IMG/VR virus record: IMGVR_UViG_3300034980_000520
Coordinates: 1-64,000 of that record
DNA length: 64,000 bases
Source: a virus
Direction: 5' to 3' (one strand)
A program made the translations under genes and the position numbers. Of this stretch, positions 38,276 to 43,896 are shown piece by piece (within the stretch, counting starts at the first letter, position 1; each line of letters opens with the position of its first letter). The notes beneath the pieces are model-generated. The model had not been told where the DNA came from and searched no databases. It saw only the letters and a program-made list of their open reading frames with translations.

Positions 38276-39469
38276 ATGACATATTTTTTTCGAGAAGACA
38301 ATAGCGAAAGCACCATAGACTTATATAATAAGAAGAGAATATACGATAGTATAATCCGCGGCACTTCTCCAAATCTTGTTAATTTTCAATTTGCCGAAAA
38401 GGCACTTTATGGGAGAGTAGATCGCCTCTACCGCCCAATGGTACTTACTAACTATATACCGCTCCAACTAAAGGGCTTCGGCGCAGAAGGAACACCTGCC
38501 CAATCGGCACGTGCCTTAAACTTTGTGGCAGACGCTTTCGCTGATTTGAGAAATCAGTTTTTAAAAAAGAGGCTGACAAATGAAATCTCCCCAAATGAAG
38601 ATTTTCTGAGTAGCCCTGTTGTTTATAAAGCCTATGTGAATCCCAAGAAAACTTACGATGAATATATTCAGATATATTTAGAGGCATTTCAAGATGTTGT
38701 CCGCACCAAAAGGCTGACATTCGGCAATTTTCAAGAATTTATAGACACGATCATGCCATTTTTAATGAAAACGATTCGCAAAAAGCCATTCACCTATACT
38801 GCATTCGTCAAGAGTACATTTTGCCCAATCAACGCGTCCGGACTCGTGGTAGAGATAGCGGATATTGATCCCGTGAATGATGTAGAAAAGGTGAAGAAGT
38901 TCATCAAGAGCCCCAATTGGCAGTTTTATTTAACAGCATGCGGTAATTTTGGCTTCATGGTAGATCGCAACACCCCTTGGCGCCTCGTTGCTGACATCGG
39001 TTCGGCAAACATGCTACAGTATGCTGAGCGCTATGGAGTTTATTCGACTGATGGGGTTTTAGTAGCAGCATATGGCCGGGCATATAAAAACTACTTGACA
39101 ACCTTTCGCTCTATATTGTATAATATGTACATGAAACTAAAGCGCCCTCGATATTCTCGCTATGTTGAAGTTGATTCATTGGGAGGAAAGGTTGTGACAG
39201 TAACCCCGAAGCGATACAGGCCAGAAGACTATTTATTAGAATTTCCGGACTCTTACTTTTTAAGTCTCTATTGTAAAATTAGAATGGTGGAGGAGGAGTC
39301 GTCTTTTTCGGAAGCGCAGAAGTACCAATTAATAGACAACACTATCGAATTGGCACAGGTTAATCCGACTAGGGCGTTAGATACATTTGAAATTATTGTG
39401 AATAAAACGTTTGACTATAACGGCTCATTGAGTTACATTAAGGATACATTGGCAAAGCTGAGAGAGTAA
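38276..39469 (+). CDS. hypothetical protein
   Basis: 397-aa ORF with FGFMVDRNTPWRLVADI motif. Confidence 0.7.
   Translation: MTYFFREDNSESTIDLYNKKRIYDSIIRGTSPNLVNFQFAEKALYGRVDRLYRPMVLTNYIPLQLKGFGAEGTPAQSARALNFVADAFADLRNQFLKKRLTNEISPNEDFLSSPVVYKAYVNPKKTYDEYIQIYLEAFQDVVRTKRLTFGNFQEFIDTIMPFLMKTIRKKPFTYTAFVKSTFCPINASGLVVEIADIDPVNDVEKVKKFIKSPNWQFYLTACGNFGFMVDRNTPWRLVADIGSANMLQYAERYGVYSTDGVLVAAYGRAYKNYLTTFRSILYNMYMKLKRPRYSRYVEVDSLGGKVVTVTPKRYRPEDYLLEFPDSYFLSLYCKIRMVEEESSFSEAQKYQLIDNTIELAQVNPTRALDTFEIIVNKTFDYNGSLSYIKDTLAKLRE
39411..39439 (+). promoter_or_regulatory. sigma70-like promoter for PolA-like gene
   Basis: TTGACT-N17-TACATT. Confidence 0.6.
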
Positions 39470-40671
39470 TGTATTTTCAATCTATTGATGATAAAGAGGA
39501 ATGTCTAGGCATATACCACGATGGTGTTTTGGAATTTGATAAAGACAGAATGCCCACGGATTTTTCCGGAATGAGAACGTGGAAATATTCAGGATCTATT
39601 ATAAATAAAGATGTAGAATATGGTTGGCTATGGGCATCGGGTAGCAACCTAAAGGAAATGTGCCCACCTGAACTACAGTCAGAATTGTCGCGCATGCAAA
39701 AGAAGATGTCGGCATTTAAAAAATCATTTGAGATCGCCAAAATCGATTTTCGTCAACATTGCTTTTTTGATCTGGTACCGCACGATTTTTTGACTGCTTT
39801 TTTAGAAGTTAAAAATAAGATAACTCAGCATGTATTTGAAACAACAGAAAAGCCTGTTATCTACGATCACCTGTGCCAATTGGAAAAACTGTTGTATAAG
39901 ATAAGGTATCAAGAGATGAACATTGACCCTACCGACTGTCGACACCTTTTCATCAAGTCTGCCCACCGATCCCGAGCAAACAAAATTATGGGCGGCTCTC
40001 GGTTCATCGATTACAACATTTTTGGAACAAAAACAGGACGATTAGCAACGTATCCGGGATCTCTCCCTCTACTGACGATGCAGAAAGAATTGCGTGCTTT
40101 CATTAAACCACGCAACGATTGGTTTATTTCTCTTGACTATAATGCAGCAGAGGCGCGAACTGTAATCGGATTACTTGGAAAGTCACAACCAACGGAAGAT
40201 GTGCACGAATGGCATATGGATACTATTTTTAAGAACACGGAAATCTCCACCCGAGAAGCTGCAAAAACCGCTTTTTTCGCGTGGCTGTATAATCCTGCAT
40301 CTAGTCAATTCACCCAACAGCCATACGAGAGAGATGAATTGCTGGAAAAGTTTTATAAAAATGGATGCATAGAAACTCTTTTCGGAAGATCGATAGAAGT
40401 AGATGAATTTAAAGCACTTAACTACCTGATTCAAAGCACGACGGCAGATTTAGTGAATGAGCGCGCCGTTGCATTAGACAGCTTCCTAGAAGGCACGAAA
40501 AGCTTTGTGTCGCACATCGTGCACGATGAGGTGGTTTTGGATATGCATGACGAGGATCGTCAATTGTTGCCTGAAATTAAAGATATCTTTGCGCAAAACC
40601 GTTTGGCGAAATTTGAGGTTAACTTTAAAGCGGGTAAAGATTATTATAACTTAGAAAGGTTGAACGTATGA
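39469..40671 (+). CDS. short family A DNA polymerase-like protein
   Basis: TKTGRL, motif A SLDYNAAEAR, motif B REAAKTAFFAWLY, NYLIQST, motif C VHDEV. Confidence 0.8.
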   Translation: MYFQSIDDKEECLGIYHDGVLEFDKDRMPTDFSGMRTWKYSGSIINKDVEYGWLWASGSNLKEMCPPELQSELSRMQKKMSAFKKSFEIAKIDFRQHCFFDLVPHDFLTAFLEVKNKITQHVFETTEKPVIYDHLCQLEKLLYKIRYQEMNIDPTDCRHLFIKSAHRSRANKIMGGSRFIDYNIFGTKTGRLATYPGSLPLLTMQKELRAFIKPRNDWFISLDYNAAEARTVIGLLGKSQPTEDVHEWHMDTIFKNTEISTREAAKTAFFAWLYNPASSQFTQQPYERDELLEKFYKNGCIETLFGRSIEVDEFKALNYLIQSTTADLVNERAVALDSFLEGTKSFVSHIVHDEVVLDMHDEDRQLLPEIKDIFAQNRLAKFEVNFKAGKDYYNLERLNV

Positions 40672-41531
40672 TATCGATCGTGGGAATAGGTAATGCCGGC
40701 TCTGCCATCGCGGAGAAGTTTAAGTCGCAAAAGAACAACTATAAGGTGTATCAGCTAAATAGCAAATGTGGTAAATCCAAATCTTGCCATAAACTGAAAG
40801 AATTTGACACACCAGAAGAATACGAGAACAGCATACCGAATCTTAAAACATTCTTTAAAGATATCACCGACAAGGTACAAGTATTTGTGGTGGGCTCCTC
40901 CAAAAGCTCCGGCTATGCTTTGGGTATCTTGGAGCAAATAAAAGATAAAAATTTAGAGATATTCTATATAAAGCCTGATACCGAGTTGCTGACAGGTATT
41001 CCCAAGCTGTTAGAAAACATGACATATGGAATACTACAAGAATATGCCCGCTCAGCTATGTTTACATCGCTGACAGTTTTTTCGAATTACGAGATTGAAA
41101 AAAATCTGCCCAATATATCAATTAAAAATTATTTTGATACCCTTAATCAAACCATTTTTTCTTCCGTTCATTATCTCAATTTTTTTACGCACACGGAGCC
41201 GGAAATAGGACAAGTTTCGCGCCCCGCTCCGATTAACAGGATCCGCAGTGTTGGGATGCTTAATTTAAAAGATATGTCAGAAAAATGGCTCTTTAACCTT
41301 GACAGCCCGCGTGAAACATGCTATTATATATGTATAAATCAGGATAGATTAGAAAAAGAATCGGGCTTGCATAAACAGTTGGTAGATATGCTCAAGGAGA
41401 AGCCTCGAAATGCTTACAGAAAGATCTCATATGGTATATGGGAGACAAATTTACAAGACTTTGGGTTCTGCGTTGCCCACACTAACGCAATTCAACAACA
41501 AACTACCCTTGACAAGCTAGAGCAAGGGTGA
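40668..41531 (+). CDS. tubulin/FtsZ-like protein, degenerate GTPase loop
   Basis: N-terminal IVGIGNAGSAIAE (T1 loop); GGGTGSG position reads GSSKSSG. Confidence 0.55.
   Translation: MISIVGIGNAGSAIAEKFKSQKNNYKVYQLNSKCGKSKSCHKLKEFDTPEEYENSIPNLKTFFKDITDKVQVFVVGSSKSSGYALGILEQIKDKNLEIFYIKPDTELLTGIPKLLENMTYGILQEYARSAMFTSLTVFSNYEIEKNLPNISIKNYFDTLNQTIFSSVHYLNFFTHTEPEIGQVSRPAPINRIRSVGMLNLKDMSEKWLFNLDSPRETCYYICINQDRLEKESGLHKQLVDMLKEKPRNAYRKISYGIWETNLQDFGFCVAHTNAIQQQTTLDKLEQG
41299..41327 (+). promoter_or_regulatory. sigma70-like promoter (intragenic)
   Basis: TTGACA-N17-TATTAT with extended -10 TG. Confidence 0.6.
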
Positions 41532-41537
41532 TACATT
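41509..41537 (+). promoter_or_regulatory. sigma70-like promoter for SSB gene
   Basis: TTGACA-N17-TACATT with extended -10 TG. Confidence 0.7.
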
Positions 41538-41591
41538 AGATATCGAGGAAAGCTCGGTATACTTTACAACAACAAATAGGAGAAAAAACTA

Positions 41592-42359
41592 ATGTCAATC
41601 AATATGGAACTAATGAAGAAGAAGCTCGCATCTCTGCGTGGAGAAGGCGGCAACGAAAACTCAGTGTGGTTTAAGCCACAAGAGGGCGAACAAGTGGTTC
41701 GCATCGTCCCCACTGCAGATGGGGATCCACTTAAGGAAATGTTTTTCCACTACAATGTGGGTGATCACAAGGGGGGCATTGTATGTCCTAAACGAAACTT
41801 TGGCGATCGTTGCCCCGTCTGCGAATTTGCATCCTCAGTATGGAAAGAGGCTGTAGCAACAAATGACGAAGAAGCGAAGAAGCTTGCAAAGTCATTGTTT
41901 GTACGTGCGCGATACTTCTCCCCCGTAGTACTTCGGGGATCAGAAGAGGAAGGAATTAAATTCTACGGCTACGGAAAGCGCGCCTACGAACTTCTTTTGG
42001 GATACATTTTGGATCCCGAATACGGTGACATCACCGACAAACTGGAAGGTACCGATATTACCTTAGTGTATACTAAGCCCACATCCCCCGGTGCCTATCC
42101 ACAAACAAGCCTTAAGATGAGAAGAAATACTTCGACTCTACTTGAGGATCAAGACGCTATCCCCGCCCTCCTTGATCGTATGCCCGATTTTGATAGCCTC
42201 TTTGAGCGACTTTCCCCCGAGGAAATAGACGCGATTCTTGATGAGCAACTTGCTGGTGATCTTAGTGCGGAAACACGATCATCGGAAACTGGGCGTTATA
42301 ATGTTGACACTCAAAACCCAGTTGATAAGGCATTTGATGAGCTGATGGCCACCAAGTAG
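41592..42359 (+). CDS. single-stranded DNA-binding protein (T4 gp32-like)
   Basis: WFKP, VRIVP, HY...CP..FGDRCPVCE zinc site, YGDITD..EGTDI, acidic tail AFDELM. Confidence 0.85.
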   Translation: MSINMELMKKKLASLRGEGGNENSVWFKPQEGEQVVRIVPTADGDPLKEMFFHYNVGDHKGGIVCPKRNFGDRCPVCEFASSVWKEAVATNDEEAKKLAKSLFVRARYFSPVVLRGSEEEGIKFYGYGKRAYELLLGYILDPEYGDITDKLEGTDITLVYTKPTSPGAYPQTSLKMRRNTSTLLEDQDAIPALLDRMPDFDSLFERLSPEEIDAILDEQLAGDLSAETRSSETGRYNVDTQNPVDKAFDELMATK

Positions 42360-42370
42360 CGGGCTTGTTT

Positions 42371-42410
42371 AAGCCGCTGGCAGATCGGCTTTAAGTAAAT
42401 AGTCTGCCGC
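42371..42410 (+). repeat. structured intergenic repeat copy 1 (pseudoknot-capable)
   Basis: AAGCCGCTGGCAGATCGGCTTTAAGTAAATAGTCTGCCGC. Confidence 0.8.
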
Positions 42411-42439
42411 AATTTTCTATAAACAAAAAGGAGAATGTT

Positions 42440-42682
42440 ATGGAATGGTTAAAATCCCTATGGGCTAAATGGAAGGTTCAAATTAGCGTAGCAGGAGGCG
42501 TCCTGGTGATTGCCACCGCCTACGGAACCTGCAGCGTAGATCCCACTACGGTTTCTGACAATAGTAGCACAGATATCAACACGACTGAGACAGTCGAGGT
42601 ATCAGCCACCACAGAGACAGTTGGAGAGACAACAACCACGGGTGATACCACAGGTACCACCACCACAACTACAGGCGAGTAG
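42440..42682 (+). CDS. small membrane protein with Thr-rich tail
   Basis: AAGGAG RBS, MEWLKSLWAKW, TM segment, GTC, poly-Thr tail. Confidence 0.75.
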   Translation: MEWLKSLWAKWKVQISVAGGVLVIATAYGTCSVDPTTVSDNSSTDINTTETVEVSATTETVGETTTTGDTTGTTTTTTGE

Positions 42683-42687
42683 TAAAA

Positions 42688-42720
42688 AAGCCGCTGGCAG
42701 ACCGGTAAAAAGTCTGCCGC
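42688..42720 (+). repeat. structured intergenic repeat copy 2 (pseudoknot-capable)
   Basis: AAGCCGCTGGCAGACCGGTAAAAAGTCTGCCGC. Confidence 0.8.
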
Positions 42721-42744
42721 CATCACAAGCTTTAAGGAGGGCAC

Positions 42745-43896
42745 ATGGCAAAGAAAGTTACGGCTAAAGCAGGACGTGTAGCAATGCAGGATCTGATGAA
42801 ATTAGTCAATAAAAAAGCCGGCAGAAATGTCGCACACGATTTAACGGGAGATAATCCCACGTCCGTCAAGGAATGGATCCCAACAGGATCAAGATGGCTT
42901 GATTCTATTATCTGCAAGGGGTACGTCGCCGGCATCCCAGTAGGCAAGGTTACAGAGATCGCCGGGTTGGAATCAACAGGCAAATCTTACATGGCTGCGC
43001 AGATCGCAGCAAACGCCCAGAAACAGGGCAAGCTTGTCGTTTACTTCGATTCTGAGTCTGCCATCGATCCAACCTTCTTAGAGCGCACAGGGTGCGATTT
43101 AGGGCGTTTAATGTACGTTCAGGCGTCCTCTGTGGAGTTTGTGCTGGAGACGATCGAAGAACTTCTCGGTGCGTCCGATGACAAGCTCGTATTTATCTGG
43201 GATTCGTTGGCGTTTACGCCATCTGTGTCTGATGTCGAAGGAGACTTCAATCCCCAGTCGTCAATGGCGGTTAAGGCACGTATTCTGGCTAAGGGAATGT
43301 CTAAGCTGGTAATCCCCGTTGCTGATAGACAGGCGACACTGATCGTTCTGAATCAGCTTAAAACAAACATCCCGCAAGGACCGAACGCTAGAATTGTTGC
43401 GATGACAACACCATACACAACACCCGGCGGGAAGGCAATGCATTATTCATATTCATTGCGCATATGGCTAACAGGGCGAAAGGCAAAGTCTTCCTTTATT
43501 GAAGACGAGAAGGGCTTTCGAATCGGATCAGAGGTTAAGGTAAAACTTGAGAAATCTCGCTTCGGCACTCAAGGTAGATCGTGCGCATTCCGCATTCTAT
43601 GGGGCACCGAAGAGATTGGTATCCGAGACGAGGAAAGCTGGTTTGACGCTATTAAGGGCTCCGAGAGTCTTACCTCTGCCGGAGCATGGTATACGCTAGC
43701 TACTCCAGATGGATACACCAAGAAATTTCAGCCATCTAAGTGGACTGACTTGATTACATCTGATGAAGAGTTCCGCGGAAAGGTTATTCAAATAATGGAT
43801 GAAGAGATCGTTCAAAAGTTTGAGAAAAGAGAAGGCGATGCAGCCAGTTTTTATGAAGATCCGGAAGACTTGACAGTCCCCGTAACTTCAAAATAA
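42745..43896 (+). CDS. recA: RecA/UvsX recombinase
   Basis: IPTGS, EIAGLESTGKS Walker A, YFDSE, IWDS, LNQ, TPGGKA motifs. Confidence 0.92.
   Translation: MAKKVTAKAGRVAMQDLMKLVNKKAGRNVAHDLTGDNPTSVKEWIPTGSRWLDSIICKGYVAGIPVGKVTEIAGLESTGKSYMAAQIAANAQKQGKLVVYFDSESAIDPTFLERTGCDLGRLMYVQASSVEFVLETIEELLGASDDKLVFIWDSLAFTPSVSDVEGDFNPQSSMAVKARILAKGMSKLVIPVADRQATLIVLNQLKTNIPQGPNARIVAMTTPYTTPGGKAMHYSYSLRIWLTGRKAKSSFIEDEKGFRIGSEVKVKLEKSRFGTQGRSCAFRILWGTEEIGIRDEESWFDAIKGSESLTSAGAWYTLATPDGYTKKFQPSKWTDLITSDEEFRGKVIQIMDEEIVQKFEKREGDAASFYEDPEDLTVPVTSK

Follow-up and report, generated by a model that had tools for sequence, protein, structure and literature searches.

A structured RNA repeat between the gp32-like and recA genes of uncultured marine phages: a possible leaky, pseudoknot-capped terminator at cassette joints

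Why does a short, potentially pseudoknotted sequence stand twice between two core recombination genes of a phage, once on either side of a small gene? The question is raised by a stretch of 64,000 nucleotides (nt) of viral DNA (IMG/VR record IMGVR_UViG_3300034980_000520, positions 1 to 64,000; hereafter the window), in which the gene for a gp32-like single-strand DNA-binding protein (SSB) is followed by a first copy of the element, an open reading frame (ORF) of 80 amino acids (aa), a second copy and the gene for a RecA/UvsX-type recombinase (recA). A sequence-only reading of the window had described the duplicated element as an H-type pseudoknot and a candidate novel cis-regulatory RNA. After comparison with relatives, we read the element as a leaky intrinsic terminator capped by a pseudoknot and acting as a 3'-end module, which is also the recombination joint of a hypervariable cassette region; the chances that this composite reading is right appear to us evenly balanced. 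The two copies are laid out as follows (S1a and S1b, stem 1; S2a and S2b, stem 2; L1 and L3, loops):

42371 to 42410, + strand: element copy 1 (S1a 42371-42376, L1 42377-42378, S2a 42379-42385, S1b 42386-42391, L3 42392-42401, S2b 42402-42408, then GC).
42688 to 42720, + strand: element copy 2 (S1a 42690-42693, L1 42694-42695, S2a 42696-42702, S1b 42703-42706, L3 42707-42711, S2b 42712-42718, then GC).

Both copies can be read directly from the sequence, around the small gene between SSB and recA. Their differences either preserve pairing (U.G against C-G at the inner end of stem 2, G-C against G.U at the fourth pair of stem 1) or fall in L3. Each copy lies just after a stop codon, copy 1 being 11 nt past that of gp32 and copy 2 being 7 nt past that of the 80-aa ORF, and the next start codons are 29 nt (copy 1) and 24 nt (copy 2) away, counted from the GC after stem 2. 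On all these points the sequence-only reading was accurate. The 16-nt core has two exact matches in 64 kb and a third match with 3 mismatches (0.46 expected at 3 mismatches or fewer), while the stem-2 pattern GGCAGA-N5-30-TCTGCC was found twice against 0.10 expected, with two or more occurrences in none of 100 shuffles. A covariance model scored the copies at 52.0 and 51.4 bits, respectively, and no third copy was found in the whole 72-kb record. In keeping with the novelty that had been suggested, no match to Rfam 15 reached the gathering score in the 64 kb, including the preQ1, SAM-II and fluoride pseudoknot riboswitches; at E values up to 10, the interval 41450-42800 gave four weak matches far below gathering, none of them to a riboswitch or pseudoknot family. 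Single-sequence folding with a program for nested structures returned the stem-2 hairpin only, with modest z-scores (-1.2 to -2.4), so that the case for structure rests on the comparison of relatives and not on thermodynamics.

Relatives were gathered from IMG/VR by a RecA protein scan, which identified 594 among 600 candidate stretches, and the best 80 loci (L001-L080) were taken as the first set. The second set comprised the best 80 IMG/VR loci by gp32 profile, and the third was likewise drawn from IMG/VR viral contigs. The covariance model was built from the first set with stem 2 as its only structure. In the first set, the element occurs within about 50 nt after the gp32 stop in all 63 loci holding the gp32 3' end (62 in the main form, 1 variant). 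In the second, it follows the gp32 stop in all 78 readable loci, as the main form in 63, with CCC/GGG in 13 and with a stem 1 of 8 base pairs (bp) in 2; the third set added minor variants only. As three further scans mostly gave the same forms, the family looks nearly saturated in IMG/VR viral contigs. The model matched 95 times in 292 kb and 134 times in 485 kb, always on the + strand and upstream of recA, and extra copies follow small inserted ORFs up to recA, reaching five per locus. In five whole records, two of them complete genomes of about 195 kb, all matches fell in one cluster (2, 2, 5, 2 and 4 copies); the element is therefore a locus-specific signal and not the general terminator type of these phages. 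The lineage itself is abundant, uncultured and marine, with genomes of about 195 kb and hundreds of IMG/VR contigs per protein scan. No cultured-phage match to the locus was found by blastn, and the best RecA match among cultured phages (tblastn) is 32% identical, placing the lineage at some distance from T4.

Stem 2, the hairpin of the element, has 7 bp with at least four G-C pairs and is fully paired in the 86 and 76 distinct copies examined. The 86 copies were selected for having a stem, and the informative part is thus the variety of pair types: six of the seven pairs show changes on both sides. Across the sets, about 12 different stem-2 sequences occur with pairing always kept, and the wobble pairs fit the + strand sense only. 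By this comparison of sequences, stem 2 is firmly established as a structure at the RNA level, or at the single-strand level. At L068, no two of the five copies have the same stem-2 sequence. Stem 2 differs within the genome in the five-copy loci L068, L070 and L072, with CCG, the TGG after it and the loop CGG fixed; at L051, one stem-2 sequence is common to all five copies, so that divergence within a genome is not general. Where it occurs, such divergence could limit direct-repeat deletion, or mispairing between neighbouring copies in one transcript.

The surroundings of the element were counted over distinct contexts (149 or 146). The stop of an ORF (frames of at least 40 codons) lies within 50 nt upstream in 141 of 149 contexts, at a median distance of 12 nt, and a run of at least four T within 12 nt downstream accompanies 119 of 146 distinct copies. 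What follows is more varied (n = 146): small ORFs are the most frequent (58), ahead of recA (35) and larger ORFs (22), and the remainder comprises other sequence (20), -35 boxes (9) and tRNA-Met genes (2). The T-run is kept in all nine copies followed by a promoter; among the 17 copies lacking one, 16 directly precede a promoterless ORF (recA, small or larger) and the remaining one a tRNA gene. A Shine-Dalgarno sequence and a start codon come after the element in 116 of 149 contexts, the start lying 18-35 nt (median 25) past stem 2 across a U/A-rich spacer. When other genes separate recA from the last element, recA has its own TTGACA-N17-TATAAT promoter and no element. Taken together, the stops, T-runs, promoters and tRNA contexts indicate that the element belongs to the 3' end of the preceding gene and not to the leader of the next. 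The proposal of a novel cis-regulatory RNA is therefore upheld in part: the element is real, conserved, strand-specific and without an Rfam match, but it is tied to the 3' ends of gp32 and the cassettes instead of being a leader specific to recA. At seven loci (L004, L005, L013, L014, L046, L054 and L077), the recA promoter is located 95 nt before recA, the spacer often containing a short inverted repeat. The tRNA-Met (CAT) genes between the last element and recA lie at 2903-2979 of L037 and 2897-2973 of L042.

The other parts of the locus in the window are as follows:

41509 to 41537, + strand: sigma-70-like promoter of the gp32 unit (TTGACA, 17 nt, TACATT; 10/12 matches in a consensus scan).
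41540 to 41560, + strand: stem-loop in the 5' untranslated region (5'-UTR) of the gp32 mRNA, with an 8-bp stem and a 5-nt loop (RNAalifold).
41592 to 42359, + strand: gp32-like single-strand DNA-binding protein gene, 255 aa (Pfam PF08804, E 3.5e-13).
42411 to 42439, + strand: spacer after copy 1, read from the sequence, with a run of four T (42413-42416), a stretch rich in A and, ahead of the start codon at 42440, a Shine-Dalgarno sequence (42428-42433).
42440 to 42682, + strand: 80-aa cassette ORF between the two element copies (ORF list; no Pfam family).
42745 to 43896, + strand: RecA/UvsX-type recombinase gene, 383 aa (Pfam PF00154, E 5.2e-36; Shine-Dalgarno 42734-42740).

The gp32 promoter is kept at the same place in relatives. 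A consensus scan of the window found no promoter-like + strand site between it and 43900, where the next one stands, past recA; the 80-aa ORF and recA must therefore be transcribed through both copies. A hairpin followed by a U-run is what marks an intrinsic terminator, and one at this place must be leaky. Leakiness is also supported by loci in which the gp32-recA gap measures 59-90 nt, too short for a separate promoter. Copy 1 is bridged by a 477-nt contig from one metatranscriptome, which spans 42202-42678 and differs from the window at 11 positions, although it may derive from DNA in the library; the RNA-library data consist of contigs of three metatranscriptomes and one run of unknown kind, and such contigs show no ends, starts or levels.

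The pseudoknot would arise from stem 1. CCG two bases before stem 2, together with CGG directly after the 5' strand of stem 2, is present in 86 of 86 and 75 of 75 distinct copies with letters there, and when the partner is slid by 1-3 columns, stem-1 pairing falls to 9-57%, against 92-94% without the shift. In the second set, the fourth pair of stem 1 is GU in 27 copies, CG in 14, GC in 4, AU in 2, UG in 2 and UA in 1, with 25 unpaired; its covariation score is 0.119 vs 0.057 in shuffled alignments, a value exceeded in none of 500 shuffles. Crossing complementarity is also found in other letters: L041 has TCG/CGA within a 6-bp stem, a third form carries CCC upstream and GGG in the loop, and in L129, L132, L215 and L217 (the L129 type) stem 1 extends to 8 bp, with the 2-nt L1, the 7-bp stem 2 and the lack of a junction base unchanged. 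Furthermore, the loop CGG is more conserved than the surrounding stem 2, which is not expected of a plain terminator, and L3 lengths range between 3 and 13 nt. On this comparative evidence, stem 1 probably forms and matters, with the balance leaning modestly in its favour. As for the original claim, the main-form copies are all compatible with stem 1 and the rare variants are compensatory, but the core is invariant and covariation in the first set is at the shuffled level. The covariation check is divided in the same way, the six pair types and the score at the fourth pair speaking for the stem and the first-set value, given below, against it.

Several observations weigh against stem 1 or against termination at the element. 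The three core CCG/CGG pairs never vary in the main family and are uninformative on pairing, which is why formal covariation is weak within it; in the first set, used for model building, the score for stem 1 alone was 0.081 vs 0.088 shuffled, and was reached by 345 of 500 shuffles. An A.G mismatch occupies the fourth pair in 21 of 86 and 25 of 76 distinct copies, and many of the double changes in stem 1 belong to one clade and may reflect a single event. The CCC/GGG form differs in its loop lengths, and a competing local CCC-NNN-GGG hairpin is possible there. Where L1 reads CT, stem 2 can be lengthened by 2 bp at the expense of the last base of stem 1, with which this extension competes (among 86 copies, the extension pair is CG in 43 and unpaired in 41). 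With 3 bp only, stem 1 is, by estimate and not by tool computation, thermodynamically marginal. As regards termination, the element goes unlisted in a simple terminator scan, its loops (9-20 nt) being longer than the 3-8 nt that are usual. The T-run measures two or fewer in 17 of 146 distinct copies, including window copy 2 (length 1, against 4+4 T in its 98%-identical relative L001), and the U-run begins 2-3 nt past the 7-bp stem 2. The element is absent from the other ~190 kb of the complete genomes, so that a pure terminator would need an argument from local duplication. Finally, a canonical terminator hairpin stands just after the element in L162 and L131, suggesting that the element alone stops transcription poorly. 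These separate short-loop hairpins with a T-run lie at about 2020-2050 of L162, whose element has no T-run, and about 2385-2420 of L131.

The interval in which the copies lie is highly variable, the gp32-recA gap ranging from 59 to 2776 nt in the first set, and breakpoints of insertions were located in two locus pairs, both of which break inside the element. L056 and L058 have flanks 85-93% identical and differ by a 1.3-kb insert, with the aligned pieces overlapping at the element, on L056 2938-2991; between L055 and L056 the difference is a single cassette, and the aligned pieces overlap on L055 404-460, again the element. The suggestion that the duplication shows how the 80-aa gene came in is supported by these breakpoints, and what it described in the window is a modular pattern found throughout the family instead of a single event. 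The 80-aa ORF belongs to the commonest cassette family of the interval (27 ORFs among 80 loci); its N-terminal segment is hydrophobic and its tail Thr-rich and acidic. Another common cassette, with 15 ORFs, codes for a protein of only about 30 aa that seems to have a lipoprotein signal (in the ORF list it is extended upstream to 54 aa), and small membrane or lipoprotein-like ORFs are present in the interval (L001-L080). When 26 interval proteins were scanned with Pfam, 19 had no match. Larger inserts encode D12 adenine methyltransferases, an Hc1-like (histone-like) protein, a PD-(D/E)XK domain protein, which adjoins a methyltransferase, and an HATPase protein.

From these elements we propose the following mechanism. 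At the RNA level and on the coding strand, the stem-2 hairpin and its U-run would act as a leaky intrinsic terminator or attenuator and as a protector of the 3' end, closing the gp32 message and each small cassette message while allowing partial read-through to recA. The first three loop bases, CGG, would pair with the CCG two bases upstream into a compact H-type pseudoknot, in which L1 measures 2 nt, L3 is rich in A and the two stems abut directly. Such a knot would close an otherwise oversized hairpin loop, and probably tunes termination efficiency, resistance to 3' exonucleases, or both. We infer here that stem 1 actually forms, that transcription terminates at the element and also what the knot adds. 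The same sequence of about 35 nt at the end of every unit would also supply homology for the gain, loss and exchange of cassettes between co-infecting relatives, and we propose that the 80-aa gene is for this reason flanked by two copies.

Other explanations have to be weighed against this one. The element could be a translational operator on which gp32 (SSB), or another RNA-binding protein, nucleates at the knot, spreads over the spacer and covers the next Shine-Dalgarno sequence, so that translation of recA and the cassettes would track the level of free SSB, as with T4 gp32 on its own mRNA. The analogy is attractive in that the upstream gene is a gp32 homologue and in that the T4 gene 32 operator, as presented in the available sections of PMC535899, is a pseudoknot of about 28 nt followed by an unstructured A/U-rich stretch with the ribosome-binding site, the T4 knot having the same layout by our reading of the T4 sequence. 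Translation starts across a U/A-rich spacer after 116 of 149 contexts would suit an operator, and the invariant CCG..TGG..CGG bases and the restriction to one locus fit a specific recognition site. However, no role in the leader of a next gene is possible for the intact copies before promoters (9), tRNA-Met genes (2) or other sequence (20), and recA is without an element, and has its own promoter, whenever other genes intervene. Moreover, the spacer measures 18-35 nt instead of more than 40 nt and has a T-run in place of UUAAA repeats, while the element stands 3' of gene 32, whose own leader holds a plain covarying hairpin. We consider an operator of this kind unlikely. A variant that we rate lower still assumes an SSB-recognised pseudoknot operator 3' of gene 32, where free gp32, by binding the knot and the U-rich tract, would set read-through and/or translation initiation for recA and the cassettes. 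If the SSB-operator reading were true, any gene inserted there would join an SSB-titration regulon, the operator itself being a gene-recruiting recombination handle.

A simpler possibility is a plain hairpin terminator, in which only stem 2 and the U-run matter, no pseudoknot forms, and CCG..CGG is conserved through a recent common ancestor of the copies or for a reason other than pairing. The invariance of the stem-1 core in the main family, and hence its lack of covariation, would be explained, as would the quarter to third of copies unpaired at the fourth pair, the hairpin obtained alone by single-sequence folding, and the near-identity of short-loop copies across genomes, which fits a recent spread. 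Shared descent alone is nevertheless inadequate to account for a CCG and a loop CGG that stay fixed among about 12 stem-2 sequences and L3 lengths of 3-13 nt. The loss of pairing when the stem-1 partner is slid, and the crossing complementarity kept in other letters by L041 (TCG/CGA), the CCC/GGG form and the 8-bp stems of L129, L132, L215 and L217, also argue against this option, to which we give a low probability. Far less probable is a site acting at the DNA level, an inverted repeat read as folded or duplex DNA by a recombinase, homing enzyme or repressor in the manner of integron attC sites, with the RNA features incidental. The features recalling such a site are one copy at the 3' end of each cassette, indel breakpoints within the element and a structure conserved while the stem-2 sequence changes; attC sites, too, conserve their structure while the sequence changes. 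Yet 229 of 229 model matches lie on the coding strand, A.C mismatches would take the place of the G.U pairs if the other strand were folded (stem 1 has G.U at its fourth pair in 48 of 86 copies, and stem 2 has several), both the T-run and the constant spacing from stops are features of a transcript, and Pfam revealed no integrase or homing endonuclease among the 26 interval proteins, 19 of them without any match. Two further candidates were rejected. A recoding (frameshift or read-through) pseudoknot is contradicted by in-frame stops, which in the window are TAG-TAA behind the 80-aa ORF and, 13 codons past the gp32 stop, TAA, and in many relatives by stops in every frame. A riboswitch has nothing in its favour, given the lack of an Rfam match and the position of a 35-nt repeat after unrelated cassette genes with no evident common ligand logic.

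Other features of the locus deserve mention. The gp32 5'-UTR stem-loop stands directly after the promoter, at the predicted mRNA start; in 31 distinct sequences, RNAalifold found compensatory double changes in seven of its eight pairs, and its loop, GAAMG, is nearly invariant (window 41509-41565). The hairpin is absent in one clade (L125 type), and may figure among the 12 candidates that PMC10690425 lists upstream of GP32 genes. The gp32 message thus has a hairpin at its 5' end and the element at its 3' end, as expected for an abundant, stable mRNA with graded read-through to recA. Between the gp32 stop and copy 1 (window 42357-42370), many relatives have extra stops in each of the three frames as well as a conserved TAGG(C/T) box situated 12-15 nt upstream of the element. 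A hairpin of this box with the CC of stem 1 was discarded as too weak (mean longest helix 3.0 bp vs 2.5 bp shuffled, 56 distinct sequences). Further upstream, window 38276-40671 holds two abutting ORFs of 397 and 400 aa. A match to family A DNA polymerase (PF00476) is confined to the second, so that the polymerase gene may be split, or its N-terminal part unrecognised. The next ORF, of 287 aa (40668-41531), has no Pfam match.

Among known systems, intrinsic terminators share with the element a G+C-rich hairpin and a following U-run on the coding strand, a few to about 25 nt after a stop; T4 itself has, by our reading of its sequence, a canonical hairpin with a 6-T run about 25 nt past the stop of gene 32. 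The element differs from them in its loop of 9-20 nt instead of 3-8 nt, the first three bases of which are invariant and complementary to bases just upstream, in a U-run set 2-3 nt past the stem, in the substantial read-through that it requires and in its confinement to one genome interval. The IMG/VR catalogue of Fremin and Bhatt (PMC10690425), in the sections available, comprises 10,006 candidates. Rho-independent terminators are predicted for 1241 of them, while 12 lie upstream of GP32 genes and some precede RecA genes; according to the paper, a model of the gene 32 pseudoknot is lacking in Rfam. The pseudoknotted gp32-recA repeat is not described in those sections, although the motif may be among the 10,006 candidates. 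In a full-text literature search, neither a terminator repeat with a pseudoknot between SSB and recombinase genes nor a pseudoknot-locked loop in phage terminators was found described. The element is a well-populated addition to structured RNA motifs, from a marine phage lineage that is abundant and uncultured; if the knot forms, it would represent a terminator hairpin with a loop held closed by a pseudoknot.

Among described systems, the element comes closest to the promoter-early stem-loop (PeSL) cassettes of T4-like phages, which the available sections of PMC4122927 and PMC2839356 present as short conserved regulatory repeats flanking variable ORFs in hyperplastic regions and serving as points of homologous exchange. 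Like PeSL (PMC4122927), the element flanks variable ORFs and has indel breakpoints in the repeat. PeSL, according to the same available text, is a composite of terminator and early promoter distributed over several regions of T4-like genomes, whereas the element carries no promoter (a -35 box follows 9 of 146 copies), includes a putative pseudoknot, is restricted to one interval and belongs to a lineage not close to T4. It would offer a testable case in which one short RNA signal is both an expression boundary and the homology for cassette exchange, beside two core recombination genes.

The comparison with T4 gene 32 concerns the knot. In the portions of PMC535899 available, the T4 pseudoknot lies in the leader of the gene and is an autogenous translational operator, the T4-type operator consisting of a pseudoknot followed by more than 40 nt of unstructured A/U-rich sequence with UUAAA or UAAA repeats and the ribosome-binding site. 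As far as these portions describe the T4, T2 and RB69 gene 32 pseudoknots, the element has in common with them an H-type knot by a gp32 gene, a 7-bp second stem bridged by 1-2 nt, coaxial stems without a base between them, a short A-rich third loop and an unstructured U/A-rich stretch leading to a ribosome-binding site; our reading of the T4 sequence gives a 7-bp stem 2, an L1 of 1 nt, no junction base and an L3 of 5-7 nt. Unlike the T4-type operator, the element stands 3' of gene 32, occurs in multiple copies, has no sequence similarity to it, precedes a T-rich spacer of 18-35 nt and is present even where no gene follows. The common layout of the knot makes it testable whether recognition of a pseudoknot by SSB is older and wider than the T-even case.

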